Shown here: positions 3,833 through 42,124 of the stretch, piece by piece
Numbering within the stretch: position 1 is the first letter of the stretch
Layout of the letters: each line of letters opens with the position of its first letter
Assembly (NCBI RefSeq): GCF_056746865.1
Contig: NZ_CM163382.1
Length of the DNA: 64,000 nucleotides
Reading direction: 5' to 3' (one strand)
Program-made: the position numbers and the translations under genes
The notes under the pieces: generated by a model
Told to the model about the DNA's origin: nothing
Database searches by the model: none
What the model saw: the letters and a program-made list of their open reading frames with translations, nothing else

Positions 3833-4057
3833 ATGTTTCCAGAATACCGAGATTTAATATCCCGTCTGAAAAACGAAAATCCTCGCTTTATGTCCTTGTT
3901 CGATAAACACAATAAACTTGATCATGAAATTGCCAGAAAGGAAGGTTCCGACGGTCGAGGGTACAATGCGGAAGTGGTCCGCATGAAAAAACAAAAGTTA
4001 CAGTTAAAAGATGAGATGCTCAAAATCCTGCAGCAGGAGAGCGTCAAAGAGGTGTAA
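3833..4057 (+). CDS. ydcH: DUF465 small protein YdcH
   Basis: Track ORF starts at GTG 3827; ATG at 3833 gives MFPEYRDLISRLKNENPRF..., 74 aa. Confidence 0.8.
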   Translation: MFPEYRDLISRLKNENPRFMSLFDKHNKLDHEIARKEGSDGRGYNAEVVRMKKQKLQLKDEMLKILQQESVKEV

Positions 4058-4065
4058 ACTTTCCT

Positions 4066-4090
4066 AAGCCGCCAGCCAGGCGGCTTTTTT
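4066..4090 (+). terminator. Rho-independent terminator after ydcH
   Basis: aagccgcc-agcca-ggcggctt stem-loop followed by a T run. Confidence 0.65.
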
Positions 4091-4119
4091 AACAACTGCA
4101 TGGATTGACTGGAGATAAG

Positions 4120-4659
4120 ATGACTGAAACGATAAAAGTAAGCGAATCACTTGAATTACATGCTGTTGCAGAAAATCACGTCACTCCTCTTTATCAGTTA
4201 ATCTGTAAAAATAAAACCTGGTTACAGCAGTCGCTAAACTGGCCGCAGTTTGTTCAAAGTGAAGAGGACACGCGAAAAACGGTGCAGGGCAATGTAATGT
4301 TGCATCAACGCGGATATGCCAAAATGTTCATGATTTTCAAAGAAGATGAACTTATCGGCGTTATCTCGTTTAATCGTATTGAACCACTGAATAAAACCGC
4401 TGAAATCGGCTACTGGCTGGACGAATCTCATCAGGGGCAGGGGATCATTTCTCAGGCGCTGCAGGCATTGATTCATCATTACGCCCAGTCTGGTGAACTT
4501 AGACGCTTCGTGATCAAATGTCGGGTGGACAATGCGCAAAGCAACCAGGTCGCTTTGCGTAATGGTTTTATCCTTGAAGGTTGCCTGAAACAGGCTGAGT
4601 TCCTGAATGATGCCTATGATGATGTGAACTTATACGCGCTTATTATCGATTCACAATAA
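4120..4659 (+). CDS. rimL: Ribosomal-protein-serine N-acetyltransferase (GNAT)
   Basis: Track ORF begins at TTG 4105; ATG at 4120 preceded by a ggag SD gives [28 protein letters not shown]..., 179 aa. Confidence 0.85.
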
Positions 4660-5631
4660 CCCTGCCAGTGGCGTTCGAGTAATGCGTTCCTCGCCGTTAA
4701 TGACTTTTGGACCACGGACATGAACCGTGTCGCCATCAAAGGCTTCAACGACGGCGTGGTCGGTTAACTCCACATGGTTTTCAATTATCACCGCACCTGT
4801 AATACGGCTCTCACCTTGTATGACAACGTGCTCGTCGAGCAGAATCGGTCCGCCACATACCACGGCATTTCCGCCAATCAAGACATGATGTTTTAACACA
4901 CAATTACCTTCCACAATGGCATATTCCGCCACCTGCGAACTGTAATGAATCGTCGGAATGGCATCTTCTTCTATGCCAGCTTTCACCTGCGCGTGACCGT
5001 AGACTTTAGCGCAATCGCATAGCCAGACGTTGTTCTCTTCATTACCTTCAACGCTGGCAAAATCAAAAACTTCGGCGCGATGTTCAATAAAAGCATACCG
5101 GACGACGGCATCGCCATAAATTTGTGCCTGGTGGACAATACGCGAGGCGCTAACCCTTGCGCGATCATAAATTTGGAGCAGGAGTTGATGGTCGGGCGTT
5201 AAGCCTTGTGCGGCGACGATCATAGAATGTTGATCAATTAAGGCGTGACCAAATATTCTACATTGCCCGTAAACTAATGAGTCATGAATGGTGACACTGT
5301 CACTTATATATGCACCCTGGCTGATTTCACTATTATCGATCCAGACGTTATCCGTTGCGTAAACCTCTCCCCACAGCACGCTGGTGCCGGTGATACGCGT
5401 ATTACCGGAAATCACCGTTCCGCCGAACGCAATAGCATTCTGGTCGTAAATCCAGCAATTTCCTTCCTGTGCTAACACCGTTTCGCGATCGATCCAGCCG
5501 CCAGCGGTTCCTGCTATCACATCGTTAAAATCGCTAATGGCGATAATCTGCCGTAATAACACATTTTTTTTAGTGCCATCTTCCTGATAACTAAAGGCTC
5601 GCTGTTCTTCACTTAGACGATATTTGCGCAT
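4651..5631 (-). CDS. ydcK: Hexapeptide-repeat (left-handed beta-helix) protein YdcK
   Basis: 326-aa ORF, ATG start, repeated G-x-A/V-x-I patterns; convergent with rimL. Confidence 0.85.
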
Positions 5632-5754
5632 AGCGTTTTCCCACAGGTGACTTACTATAACCGTAGCAAATTCTGCGGCTCTGGCTATGCTCGAGAAAAT
5701 TCCATAAAATGCATTTCAAATATACTTTATAAATTAAACAAAATGAGTAAGAAG

Positions 5755-6747
5755 ATGCAGAGCGATAAAGTGCTCAATTTGCCGGCAGGCTACTTTGGTA
5801 TTGTGTTGGGGACGATAGGGATGGGATTTGCCTGGCGCTATGCCAGCCAGGTTTGGCAGGTCAGCCACTGGTTAGGGGATGGGCTAGTGATTCTGGCGAT
5901 GATCATCTGGGGATTATTGACTAGCGCATTTATTACCCGACTCATACGCTTTCCGCATAGCGTGCTGGCGGAAGTTCGCCATCCAGTGATGAGCAGTTTT
6001 GTGAGTTTGTTTCCGGCAACGACGATGCTGGTGGCGATTGGTTTTGTTCCGTGGTTTCGCCCACTGGCGGTGTGCCTGTTCAGTTTTGGTGTCGTGGTTC
6101 AGTTGGCTTATGCCGCCTGGCAAACTGCGGGATTATGGCGCGGATCTCATCCTGAAGAAGCTACCACGCCTGGACTGTATCTGCCGACAGTTGCCAACAA
6201 CTTTATCAGCGCAATGGCCTGTGGTGCATTGGGCTACACCGACGCCGGTCTGGTGTTTTTAGGCGCAGGCGTTTTCTCATGGTTAAGCCTGGAACCGGTG
6301 ATCTTGCAGCGACTGCGCAGTTCGGGAGAATTACCCACGGCGCTGCGGACATCACTCGGCATTCAGCTCGCTCCTGCGCTGGTGGCCTGTAGTGCCTGGC
6401 TGAGCGTCAACGGCGGCGAGGGTGACACGCTGGCGAAAATGCTTTTCGGTTATGGGCTGCTGCAACTGCTGTTTATGCTACGTCTGATGCCATGGTATCT
6501 CTCCCAGCCATTTAATGCTTCATTCTGGAGTTTCTCGTTCGGCGTATCTGCACTGGCAACCACCGGTTTGCATCTGGGGAGTGGCAGCGATAATGGATTT
6601 TTCCATACGCTGGCGGTGCCGCTGTTTATCTTTACCAATTTTATAATTGCAATACTGCTCATCCGTACTTTCGCGCTTCTGATGCAGGGGAAATTGTTAA
6701 TCAGAACCGAGCGCGCCGTTTTAATGAAAGCTGAGGACAAAGAATGA
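5755..6747 (+). CDS. tehA: Tellurite resistance protein TehA (TDT-family membrane transporter)
   Basis: Internal ATG at 5755 gives [31 protein letters not shown]..., 330 aa; the track ORF (5647) is a 5' over-extension. Confidence 0.9.
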
Positions 6748-36528: not shown

Positions 36529-37017
36529 GTGCGCCGCTTTTTTGTACTAAATAATTCGCATTTTAGTCACGGCAGAGAAGAAATCCATCTTCATATTGTT
36601 TGCGATGTCCCTGATGAACTTATTGATTTCACGTTTGAATGGAAAGGTCAGAAGAAATTATGCGTGGCAGTCTCCTTTTGGTCAATAATAGCAGAACAAA
36701 AGAAAGAGCCAGAAATGACGGTCAGATATTATATCAGTTCTGCTGATTTAACCGCAAAAAAGTTCGCCACAGCGATACGAAATCACTGGCACGTGGAGAA
36801 TAAGCTGCACTGGCGTCTGGACGTGGTAATGAACGAAGACGACTGCAAAATAAGAAGAGGAAACGCCGCAGAATTATTTTCAGGGATACGGCACATCGCT
36901 ATTAATATTTTAACGAATGATAAGGTATTCAAGGCAGGGTTAAGACGCAAGATGCGAAAAGCAGCTATGGACAGAGACTACCTCGCGTCAGTCCTTGCGG
37001 GGAGCGGGCTTTCGTAA
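36529..37017 (+). pseudogene. H-repeat-associated (ISAs1-family transposase) 3' remnant
   Basis: Translation ...[44 protein letters not shown]...[22 protein letters not shown] resembles the C-terminus of H-rpt proteins; no N-terminal half present. Confidence 0.7.
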
Positions 37018-37125
37018 TCTTGCCCTGGCGATCGAATAGCGCAGATGACGGTGCTCTAAATTTGAATCTAATAAGCCGGTGTTATTTTTCATCCACTATT
37101 AAAATCTTGACACAACGAGGCAACA

Positions 37126-37686
37126 ATGAAAAAAAGCAAAAAAATTAAAACAATGAACCATCAAAATAATAGCGGGATACAAAATCAACCAGACTATCAC
37201 ATCGAAATAGAAAGAAAAAATATGGTAAGATTGCTTGATGAACGTATTGATAAAGTTTACGGTTCATTGCTAGGACCAATGAAAAAGAAAAATATAGATA
37301 AAATACGTCATTTTACACTTGATGTAATGGTGTTTATTCTTGACACGAACCCTCGTGTTTGTAATAAATTATCCAGGGAAATAATATCTTTAGCGCAAAA
37401 TACCTTCATTGAAAAAAACGTTAATTTTTCAACTTTTAATAATGAACAGCATAGAATAAGGGAGTATATGAATGAAGGTGGTGGAATACGATGGTTTACA
37501 TGGGATAACCCCGAGATATCTTTTGTTCGTGCATCTTTTGGCCTTTTTGTCAAAATGGAAACAAAAGGTGATCATGAACATACACTAAGTGACACATTTC
37601 TTCAGATTGTTGAGTGTGTTAATTTAAATATAGGACTTATTGCAAAAGATGAACTGGTAAAAATCATCAATAAACACTTTATGTAA
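37126..37686 (+). CDS. Hypothetical protein (AT-rich orphan ORF)
   Basis: 186-aa ORF, ATG with acgagg SD, low GC; no motif recognised. Confidence 0.45.
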   Translation: MKKSKKIKTMNHQNNSGIQNQPDYHIEIERKNMVRLLDERIDKVYGSLLGPMKKKNIDKIRHFTLDVMVFILDTNPRVCNKLSREIISLAQNTFIEKNVNFSTFNNEQHRIREYMNEGGGIRWFTWDNPEISFVRASFGLFVKMETKGDHEHTLSDTFLQIVECVNLNIGLIAKDELVKIINKHFM

Positions 37687-38045: not shown

Positions 38046-38681
38046 ATGAATAAAGGTAATAGATTACAACAGTTAGAAGATGCGTGTCGTGATATTATTA
38101 AAATTAACATGTGGTATGAACTCCCCGATTATGTATTTTTTTCAATATCTGACACCATCGATGGGACGAGTGATGAATTCGCAATAAATGTGTATAAAAA
38201 TATCGATAAAAGTCTTCTTGAAATATTATTGCATCCATCTGTTTTACTGTCAGTTGTTGAGTCCTTACAAAGTAATACTATAGCTGAGTATATCGTGAAA
38301 TTGTCTGAAATAGAGATGAATTATGACGACTTGCTAATATCGGATGTTAAATCATGTCTTTTTATCAACTATGGATTCAATAACAGTGAATCGGTTGCGC
38401 TATTTAATAAGATTTACCGCGAATTAAAAGATATTGTAAAATCATCAAGAGTACATATAGATCATGAGAAAGATATTTTTGATGGCCTTAATCAAATCTT
38501 GGCTTTTTCCGATAATAATAAACATGAGTATTTTTTATATATAAAGGCATATTGGCTCAGTTTATACTTTTGTGAAATTTCACAGAACGTGAGAGAAAGA
38601 GATAAGTTGTCATTTTATTATAATGAATTTTCTGTCCGATTTCCTAATGTTGTCCTATATCCGTCATGCTACAAATTGTAA
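38046..38681 (+). CDS. Hypothetical protein (AT-rich orphan ORF)
   Basis: 211-aa ORF, ATG start, low GC; no motif recognised. Confidence 0.45.
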   Translation: MNKGNRLQQLEDACRDIIKINMWYELPDYVFFSISDTIDGTSDEFAINVYKNIDKSLLEILLHPSVLLSVVESLQSNTIAEYIVKLSEIEMNYDDLLISDVKSCLFINYGFNNSESVALFNKIYRELKDIVKSSRVHIDHEKDIFDGLNQILAFSDNNKHEYFLYIKAYWLSLYFCEISQNVRERDKLSFYYNEFSVRFPNVVLYPSCYKL

Positions 38682-38806
38682 GGCTTGGCACCTGAAATTC
38701 ATTGTTAATTCGAGACGCTTGATTGTCCACTATATCAAAACAGTCATACCTCGGAATTTTCTCGCATTAGTCCATACGGTATTCAATATTCGCAACTGTG
38801 CCCTGA

Positions 38807-39007
38807 AATAAAAAACTGCAAAACTGCTTTTTCTTGACCTGTCCCAATCACGCAAGACTACTTTTAGTAGAGACCTCCAGCTATGTCGATTTTAGTGCCG
38901 CCCGCGCATTTTATACAAAACAGGGCTTTATTAATGAAGCTATAATACGCAATTACTATGATGTTGGTGAGGATAAATTAATCTTCACTAAAAATATGCA
39001 ATCGTGA
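38807..39007 (+). pseudogene. 3' remnant of a GNAT acetyltransferase gene
   Basis: Open frame without start encodes ...YVDFSAARAFYTKQGFINEAIIRNYYDVGEDKLIFTKNMQS; A-x-x-FY-x-K-x-GF is the classic GNAT C-terminal motif. Confidence 0.4.
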
Positions 39008-39073
39008 GATAAAATATGCTTTTAACTCATATTGAAACATTGCTTAAGCAACTTGGTTGCTGCATATGATTCT

Positions 39074-39643
39074 TTAGCCCGCGGTGACTCGCTTGCCGCT
39101 GGTAACAAACGTGCCAGCACCTAAGTGATGTAGTTTATTGAGTTTATCATCATCAAACTGCCAGCGGCCTTCGACAAATACCCGTGCGTCTGCCGCTGCT
39201 GATACCACCTCGCCAAACAGCGTGTCGTATTTTTCTTGCGCGGAAGTCGCAGGTAGCAAGCGGCACTCCATCCACGCCAGACATTTTTCCTCGACCAGAG
39301 GCAAACCAAGTACCGGACCTTTCACTACTGGAATGCCGTAGCAATTAAATTTATCTTCTTCACGACCCGACACACTTCCCACCGCCCACGTCCAGTTAGT
39401 TGCTGCAACGCCCGGGATAACGATGCCAAATTTACCGTTACGTTCAATCAACTCCCTGGTCCATGTCGATTTATCTACCACGATCGCAACACGTGGCGGT
39501 TCAAACTCTACCGGCATCGACCAGGCCGCAGCCATCACATTACGTCGCTGTGATTTTTCATCAAAAGTTGTTATCAAAATAGTTGGGCCATGATTTAACA
39601 GACGGCTGGCATGGTGTAATTCGACAGGGATGAATCGGCTCAC
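39074..39643 (-). CDS. yddH: Flavin reductase-like domain protein
   Basis: 189-aa ORF with ATG start; flavin-reductase-like fold by sequence. Confidence 0.85.
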   Translation of the reverse strand: MSRFIPVELHHASRLLNHGPTILITTFDEKSQRRNVMAAAWSMPVEFEPPRVAIVVDKSTWTRELIERNGKFGIVIPGVAATNWTWAVGSVSGREEDKFNCYGIPVVKGPVLGLPLVEEKCLAWMECRLLPATSAQEKYDTLFGEVVSAAADARVFVEGRWQFDDDKLNKLHHLGAGTFVTSGKRVTAG

Positions 39644-39817
39644 GGTATCGCCTCGCTAAGAAGGGGGTTTTAAAAGCGTAGCTCGTAACGCTATAAGTAA
39701 CGAAATTAACGGGATTGGCGATTTGCGAACGTGATGCATGTCCGCGATCGCACAAAATAGCCGGTGCGGCGTCTATTCCAGGTTATAAGTTGAGAAAACC
39801 ACTAAGGGAAACGCCTG

Positions 39818-40663: not shown

Positions 40664-40743
40664 TTTATGTCAGGTTGCCGGATGCGGCGTAATGAACTGC
40701 ACCCCAAATGTTGGACATAATCTGACATCTGAAGGTGCAGTTT

Positions 40744-41265
40744 ATGAAACATTCATTTGAAGTAAAACTTGCCGCTGTAAATCATTACCTGGCTGGTCAT
40801 GCAGGCATCATTTCTACGGTAAAACTCTTTCAACTTTCTCACACCAGCCTCTCACACTGGATTAATCTTTTTCTTCTTCACGGTCCTCGGGCACTGGATT
40901 GCAGACACAAGCGTAGCTATTCTCCTGAAGATAAACTTTGCGTGGTTCTTTATGCTCTCGGGCATTCTGAGTCTCTACCCCGGGTAGCTGCCCGGTTTAA
41001 CATTCCCAGCCACAACACGGTTAAAAACTGGATAAAAGGCTACCGCAAATCTGGTAATGAGGCCTTTATCAGGCGCAGGAAGGAGAAAAGCATGACCCGT
41101 TCTGATGATACCCATGAAAACGAGGCAAACATGACGCCGGAAGAGATGAAGAATGAGCTGCGTTATCTTCGCGCAGAAAATGCATATCTGAAAGCCATGC
41201 AGGAGCATCTCCTGGAAAAAAAGCGCCAGGAGCTGGAGAAAAAACGAAAGTCATCCGGAGCCTGA
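40744..41265 (+). CDS. IS3-family transposase OrfA (HTH)
   Basis: ATG at 40744 with gaaggtg SD; ends shortly after the slippery heptamer A_AAA_AAG at 41217-41223. Confidence 0.8.
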   Translation: MKHSFEVKLAAVNHYLAGHAGIISTVKLFQLSHTSLSHWINLFLLHGPRALDCRHKRSYSPEDKLCVVLYALGHSESLPRVAARFNIPSHNTVKNWIKGYRKSGNEAFIRRRKEKSMTRSDDTHENEANMTPEEMKNELRYLRAENAYLKAMQEHLLEKKRQELEKKRKSSGA

Positions 41266-41369
41266 GGTGCGGACACTGCCAGTCTGACCTGTTAAAGGCT
41301 GCAGGGCTGGCCAGAAGCACGCTGTACTACCAGCTGTCACTGCAGAAGGCTAAGGACAAGTATGCTGAT

Positions 41370-42124
<755 letters not shown>

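Follow-up and report, generated by a model that had tools for sequence, protein, structure and literature searches.

Background

Members of the PptA / 4-oxalocrotonate tautomerase family are encoded by short ORFs (approximately 60-77 aa) that begin Met-Pro and carry a catalytic Pro1. In Escherichia coli K-12, pptA (ydcE) is 234 bp long, lies tail-to-tail with the flavin reductase family gene yddH and overlaps its stop codon by 4 nt, as the original prediction had correctly stated in placing the two genes side by side. The same gene bounds Rhs locus 6, which extends from yncG to pptA and is described, in the passages of Jackson et al. 2009 (PMC2935791) that concern it, as a hypervariable Rhs/T6SS islet where C-terminal displacement occurs and orphan modules accumulate.

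Other E. coli strains have a different occupant next to yddH. The strain PT62 was found through megablast matches extending farther left among 5,426 complete E. coli genomes, and its layout is orf186, orf211, a spacer, an intact GNAT gene and yddH. The GNAT gene is convergent on yddH and encodes a protein of 155 aa (WP_040063150.1) annotated as 'GNAT family N-acetyltransferase'. This block occupies the same chromosomal slot as pptA in K-12, but pptA is unrelated to GNAT in sequence and fold.

The stretch of DNA analysed here, called the window throughout, is 64 kb long. From 38650 to 39200 it is 100% identical by megablast to E. coli CFSAN061770 (NZ_CP023142.1). The order of features in that genome is a T6SS VgrG, an M35 peptidase, a hypothetical ORF, an ISAs1 transposase fragment and a 186-aa ORF, followed by a 211-aa ORF, an unannotated gap, yddH, nhoA, IS1397, yddE and narI with the rest of the nar operon. 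The gap very probably holds a non-functional 3' stub of an accessory GNAT N-acetyltransferase gene, the 5' end of which was lost by a 466-bp deletion. The features of this part of the window are as follows.

38046..38681, plus strand, 211-aa hypothetical ORF (orf211, WP_001032567.1), 30% GC
38682..38848, plus strand, spacer 3' of orf211, collinear with PT62 up to the junction
38848..38849, no strand, deletion junction, breakpoints mapped by script and by alignment
38849..39007, plus strand, GNAT N-acetyltransferase 3' remnant, from alignment to the intact PT62 gene (L004:6057-6524)
39016..39069, plus strand, candidate diverged relic of the pptA 3' end (last ~17 codons), inside the spacer 39008-39073
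39074..39643, minus strand, yddH, flavin reductase family gene (PF01613, E 1e-21), annotated in all compared genomes

Extent and identity of the GNAT remnant

The frame running from 38807 to 39004 translates as NKKLQNCFFLTCPNHARLLLVETSSYVDFSAARAFYTKQGFINEAIIRNYYDVGEDKLIFTKNMQS (66 aa) and terminates at a TGA codon (39005-39007). The open frame and its peptide with a GNAT C-terminal motif are present as originally described, and the homologous DNA, 38849-39007, corresponds to codons 104-155 plus the stop codon of a 155-codon GNAT gene. Residues 16-66 of the peptide are identical to residues 105-155 of the PT62 protein at 47 of 51 positions (92%, E 1e-34) and to a Salmonella homologue at 41 of 51 (E 2e-29). 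The interval initially proposed, 38807-39073, contains the remnant but is too wide. Positions 38807-38848 are spacer unrelated to GNAT and open in frame by chance, and these last 42 nt of the spacer 38682-38848 are the source of the 38807 start. Positions 39008-39073 are likewise not GNAT, being a spacer of 66 bp that separates the stop codons of GNAT and yddH.

The window remnant shares with WP_040063150.1 its position by yddH and its neighbour orf211, but is reduced to 52 of the 155 codons, those at the 3' end, the deletion having taken the start, motif A and the spacer upstream. Motif A of GNAT enzymes (Q/R-x-x-G-x-G/A, beta4-alpha3) is the loop that binds the pyrophosphate of acetyl-CoA. 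In the intact protein it is QRQGVG, residues 84-89, which fall within the deleted nucleotides 1-309, and the loop is absent from the window. The remnant retains alpha4 and the last C-terminal strands. Motif B / alpha4 (A-x-x-[FL]Y-x-K-x-GF) is present as ARAFYTKQGF at approximately 38900-38929, and in the intact homologue this region aligns to the PF13508 profile as far as 83/84.

The 66-aa fragment matches no Pfam family at E <= 1 and scores only 21 bits against TIGR01575, the RimI model. Since the fragment has no Pfam match, the family assignment was made via the intact homologue, and the fragment can be regarded as GNAT by descent and not as a GNAT domain in itself. Upstream of the remnant there are stops in all three frames, and neither an intact start nor an N-terminal GNAT half is found in frame. 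The sole start codon in the remnant frame is a TTG at 38834, which gives a 57-aa ORF (38834-39007). In CFSAN061770, the 100%-identical genome, the interval from the 211-aa ORF to yddH carries no PGAP annotation. The remnant has 37% GC and the intact GNAT gene 41%, compared with 51% for yddH and nhoA, which fits membership of an AT-rich accessory block.

Intact homologues and their neighbours

The intact PT62 protein scores above the gathering cutoffs of PF13508 (34.9 bits; cutoff 27) and PF00583 (29 bits; cutoff 20.7), so that the identification of a GNAT 3' remnant made in the original prediction is borne out by both alignment and profile. More than 60 full-length homologues of ~155 aa occur in Salmonella, Enterobacter, Phytobacter, Kluyvera, Citrobacter, Serratia and Aeromonas. 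The closest solved relative is PDB 2r7h, a putative D-alanine N-acetyltransferase, which aligns over the full length (E 1e-13); the RimI structures 5isv and 2cnm are distant (E 4e-4 to 1e-3). RimI itself was considered as an identity for the intact homologue and rejected, as it scores 33 bits against TIGR01575 (ribosomal protein S18-alanine N-acetyltransferase), which has an equivalog cutoff of 86 bits. The lost gene is, as judged by its sequence, an accessory, AT-rich small GNAT whose best named relatives are of the RimI type.

GNAT toxins of the TacT/AtaT/KacT type are preceded by a small DUF1778/RHH antitoxin gene. The upstream neighbour in the window, orf211, matches no Pfam family, and in Salmonella and Phytobacter the GNAT gene has unrelated neighbours, among which no antitoxin-like Pfam match was seen. 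Together with best named relatives that resemble RimI and not TacT/AtaT, this speaks against a toxin of that type. A conserved partner gene was sought in other genera and none was found, the Salmonella gene being on an integrase island and the Phytobacter gene adjacent to an IS and MarR. As the neighbours differ between genera, the context yields no functional clue. In Salmonella enterica (L010/L011, 2739-5468) the homologue (76% aa identity) is carried on a phage-integrase island, where it follows four small ORFs (170, 166, 149 and 138 aa) with no Pfam match and precedes a DUF3987 protein, a layout that recalls an orphan or immunity-gene array.

The 466-bp deletion

PT62 and the window remain collinear to the left and right of a single gap of 466 bp (L004 5900-6365), made up of 157 bp of upstream spacer and nucleotides 1-309 of the GNAT gene. 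The two sequences share the spacer up to ...CCTGTC(G/C)CAAT, after which PT62 continues for 157 bp more before its intact gene. The window rejoins GNAT at codon 104, a CAC (His) that is the same in the Salmonella homologue. An identical junction sequence is found in four other genomes (L001, L007, L008 and L009, the last being PCN033). PCN033 shares the junction despite a different upstream structure, in which an intact ISAs1 element (ydcC) truncates its 211-aa ORF. Examination of the junction found no IS end, inverted-repeat scar, long direct repeat or convincing microhomology, and the deletion probably arose by illegitimate recombination. A CAAT repeat was considered as microhomology at the junction and rejected, because its use would require an extra 4-nt loss.

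A single deletion in the window's lineage, within the minority haplotype that carries GNAT, very probably ran from the spacer downstream of orf211 to GNAT codon 103. It took the upstream spacer, in which any promoter and ribosome-binding site presumably lay, together with the start codon and the QRQGVG loop. The leftover alpha4 and last strands would not bind acetyl-CoA and would not be translated from a normal start, and the remnant is predicted to be neither expressed nor functional. The remnant DNA is identical at 154 of 156 nt to the allele of E. coli L016, a full-length-type allele with a K127* nonsense change; its frame is open because of this near-identity, which argues for a recent deletion and not for selection.

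Two markers were compared in this interval: orf211, either intact or truncated by ISAs1 at aa 130, and GNAT, either full-length or deleted for 466 bp. The regions used were the following.

L009 (PCN033), 4540-5235
L016, 843-1793
window, 38046-39007

All four combinations occur or are implied: intact with deleted in the window, truncated with deleted in PCN033, truncated with full-length in L016 and intact with full-length in PT62. Such a four-gamete pattern points to recombination within ~1 kb or to recurrent events.

Alternative origins of the truncation

Insertion sequences are frequent at this locus, and an ISAs1-family element in or beside the GNAT gene might have caused an adjacent deletion, or recombination between ISAs1 copies might have removed the 5' part. 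ISAs1 copies or fragments are present in the window (36529-37017) and, as an intact ydcC, beside the truncated orf211 of both PCN033 and L016, while ISEc1 truncates pptA in L005. Two junction types were seen to the left of GCAAGACTACTTTTAGTAG, that of the window and one fused to an IS. The IS-fused type, in L015, joins the N-terminus of an ISAs1 transposase to the same remnant no more than 3 nt from the window breakpoint. However, the window junction carries no IS sequence or inverted-repeat scar and both of its sides are collinear with PT62, and L015, a metagenome assembly, is most simply explained as a secondary deletion of a PCN033-like arrangement. We consider an ISAs1-mediated origin improbable, and favour the simple 466-bp deletion.

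Some details of these elements may be recorded here. At L015 1597-2160 there is a chimeric ORF of 187 aa in which the N-terminal ~133 aa of the ISAs1 transposase are in frame with the GNAT remnant. The join shares a C at window position 38851; a secondary deletion is its probable origin, and an assembly artefact a possible one. The fragment at 36529-37017 of the window is the C-terminal part of an ISAs1-family (H-repeat/YdcC-like) transposase, annotated as a pseudogene by PGAP, and stands between the VgrG-M35 module and the orf186/orf211 block.

The original prediction proposed that the 5' part of the gene had been replaced by an AT-rich orphan module. In such a model orf211 with its flanking DNA would have entered a resident GNAT gene, either by insertion or by recombination across it. 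The DNA left of the junction is indeed AT-rich (30% GC in orf211 and 39.5% in the spacer), and the passages on Rhs locus 6 in PMC2935791 describe the islet as one known for C-terminal displacement and orphan modules. Against this, the best-matching records annotated as GNAT have a gene of intact length, and in PT62, the one inspected, orf211 and the same spacer lie directly upstream of it. On its left flank the window stays collinear with PT62 as far as the breakpoint. Compared with PT62 it has lost 466 bp and gained no foreign DNA, and the GNAT gene is itself AT-rich and part of the same block. The replacement is contradicted by these comparisons and is very improbable. The 211-aa protein, which matches no Pfam family, is 93% identical (aa) to its PT62 counterpart (L004:5102-5764), and orf211 is best regarded as an ancestral neighbour, lying upstream of the GNAT gene, and not as an invader. 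Further upstream, orf186 is intact in the window (37126-37686) and split by a frameshift into two overlapping ORFs in PT62 (L004 4183-4744); PT62 combines an intact GNAT with a damaged orf186, and the window shows the reverse.

Absence of pptA and a candidate relic

No PptA-like ORF is found in the 64-kb window, in agreement with the original prediction. The best tblastn match to K-12 PptA has an E value of 5.8, and among ORFs of at least 40 aa between 36000 and 39100 a single one begins Met-Pro, a 42-aa frame at 37020 that is unrelated to PptA. Alignment to K-12 likewise found no identical sequence at the position of the remnant, with K-12 homology to the window beginning exactly at the yddH stop, 39074.

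The spacer between the GNAT and yddH stops contains a feature that was overlooked in the original prediction. Read in the pptA frame, 39016-39069 gives MLLTHIETLLKQLGCCI compared with ...APQMEALIKKPGYSM for PptA, and the position of the stop is identical. Nucleotide identity to the pptA 3' end is ~70% over ~53 columns, as counted on the alignment. Global alignment gave z = 4.5 against the allele of strain 1-62, with 0 of 2000 shuffles scoring as high, and z = 3.2 against K-12 pptA. Megablast matches run from yddH into the pptA gene of many strains, beginning at window position 39040. The relic was visible in anchored alignment only; searching the window by blastn with the pptA DNA of K-12 (word size 7) did not recover it. 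Descent of this segment from the 3' end of pptA is moderately supported by these comparisons, and the likeness could partly reflect constraint on the 3' flank of yddH.

Strains with an intact GNAT gene carry the same relic-bearing spacer, so that the relic is a feature of the GNAT haplotype as a whole. Two alternative haplotypes occur in E. coli directly to the left of yddH, the common one with pptA and a minority one with the AT-rich orf186-orf211-GNAT block. In an ancestor, the block may have displaced most of the pptA gene, sparing ~50 nt at its 3' end. The direction of change was probably from pptA to GNAT, as indicated by a short alignment. A separate truncation of pptA is seen in L005 (WP4-W18-ESBL-08, 3854-5064), where an intact ISEc1 (ydcC) abuts a 63-nt pptA tail.

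Distribution and decay of the GNAT gene

Across the 5,426 complete E. coli genomes, pptA is present over at least 80% of its length in 4,082 and as a partial match in ~570 more (L005 is an example). The GNAT locus is found in 660 (about 12%), an alternative haplotype to pptA that had not been noticed in the first reading of this DNA. The sum of the pptA (4,653) and GNAT (660) counts is less than 5,426, which is compatible with mutual exclusion of the alleles, though no proof of it. The locus is full-length in ~433 genomes, most of them disrupted as in CFT073 and Nissle, and reduced to the 3' remnant in ~227, this last figure counting genomes whose match begins at the breakpoint and which cover at least 80% of a query laid across the junction. 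Among the best 40 matching records 17 are annotated as GNAT, one such allele being the 126-aa K127* form.

The allele of the phylogroup-B2-type strains CFT073, Nissle 1917 and ATCC 25922 (L002, FDAARGOS_1302, 5696-6165) is matched by 416 records at >= 99% identity. Its reading frame is broken by a W72* change (TGG to TGA) and by the loss of 1 nt from an A-run; instead of a pseudogene, the RefSeq annotation has a hypothetical protein limited to the first 71 aa (WP_000470661.1). This is the same gene at the same locus and is also a pseudogene, yet it is full length, whereas the window allele has lost its 5' two-thirds outright. With the K127* change of L016 and the ISAs1-linked truncation on the L015 metagenome scaffold, at least four different inactivating lesions are known (W72* plus frameshift, K127*, the 466-bp deletion and the ISAs1-linked form), which suggests that the GNAT gene is dispensable in E. 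coli. The remnants of the window and PCN033 differ by three non-synonymous changes, one synonymous change and a changed stop codon, a pattern consistent with no constraint over what are very few sites.

Retention of the stub for a function of its own, either as the GNAT tail and pptA relic together forming the convergent 3' partner of yddH (antisense, excludon or terminator) or as a 57-aa micro-protein, is very improbable, although it would, if true, account for ~227 genomes keeping exactly this stub. Between 38600 and 39200 a promoter and terminator scan detected no terminator and a single weak promoter-like site, on the minus strand, a yield not above that of shuffled sequence, and 38500-39800 has no Rfam match at E <= 1. 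The narrower proposal, that the 57-aa TTG ORF or its transcript is kept as a small protein or as a convergent 'excludon' modulating yddH, is extremely improbable, since the 52 open codons with their in-frame TTG are explained by the recent deletion, no Shine-Dalgarno sequence is apparent before the TTG at 38834 (bases read by eye), the plus strand has no promoter-like site, PGAP calls no gene, changes between lineages are mostly non-synonymous and the intact gene is repeatedly inactivated elsewhere, even though pptA-yddH is listed among the convergent overlapping transcript pairs of K-12 in the relevant passage of PMC12288877.

The right flank

Convergent with the remnant, yddH serves as the conserved anchor on the right-hand side of the variable region. 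It is unusually polymorphic, being 91-94% identical in nucleotide sequence to six other E. coli alleles, and the adjacent nhoA is 96-99% identical. A 100-bp stretch of yddH (39474-39573) is only 82-84% identical to all six alleles, which suggests a mosaic or a recombination patch. Between nhoA and yddE an IS3-family element, IS1397, is inserted at 40735-42092, and this insertion is absent from K-12, PT62 and the B2-type FDAARGOS_1302.

Significance

The finding is of a kind already known, and the GNAT-for-pptA alternative is visible in RefSeq annotation; the passages on this locus in PMC2935791 and PMC12288877 contain no prior description of it. For a hypervariable effector/immunity islet, an accessory gene found truncated at the margin is expected biology, and the remnant is a case of ordinary gene decay at the boundary of a known Rhs/T6SS islet. 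The analysis tidies the annotation of one junction of the yncG-pptA variable islet, and in ~227 RefSeq genomes it would allow the GNAT pseudogene remnant, at present unannotated, to be flagged along with the pptA relic. It also documents pptA and an accessory GNAT block as alternative occupants of the slot beside yddH, which is a small caution for pan-genome studies and for analyses of pptA presence and absence.
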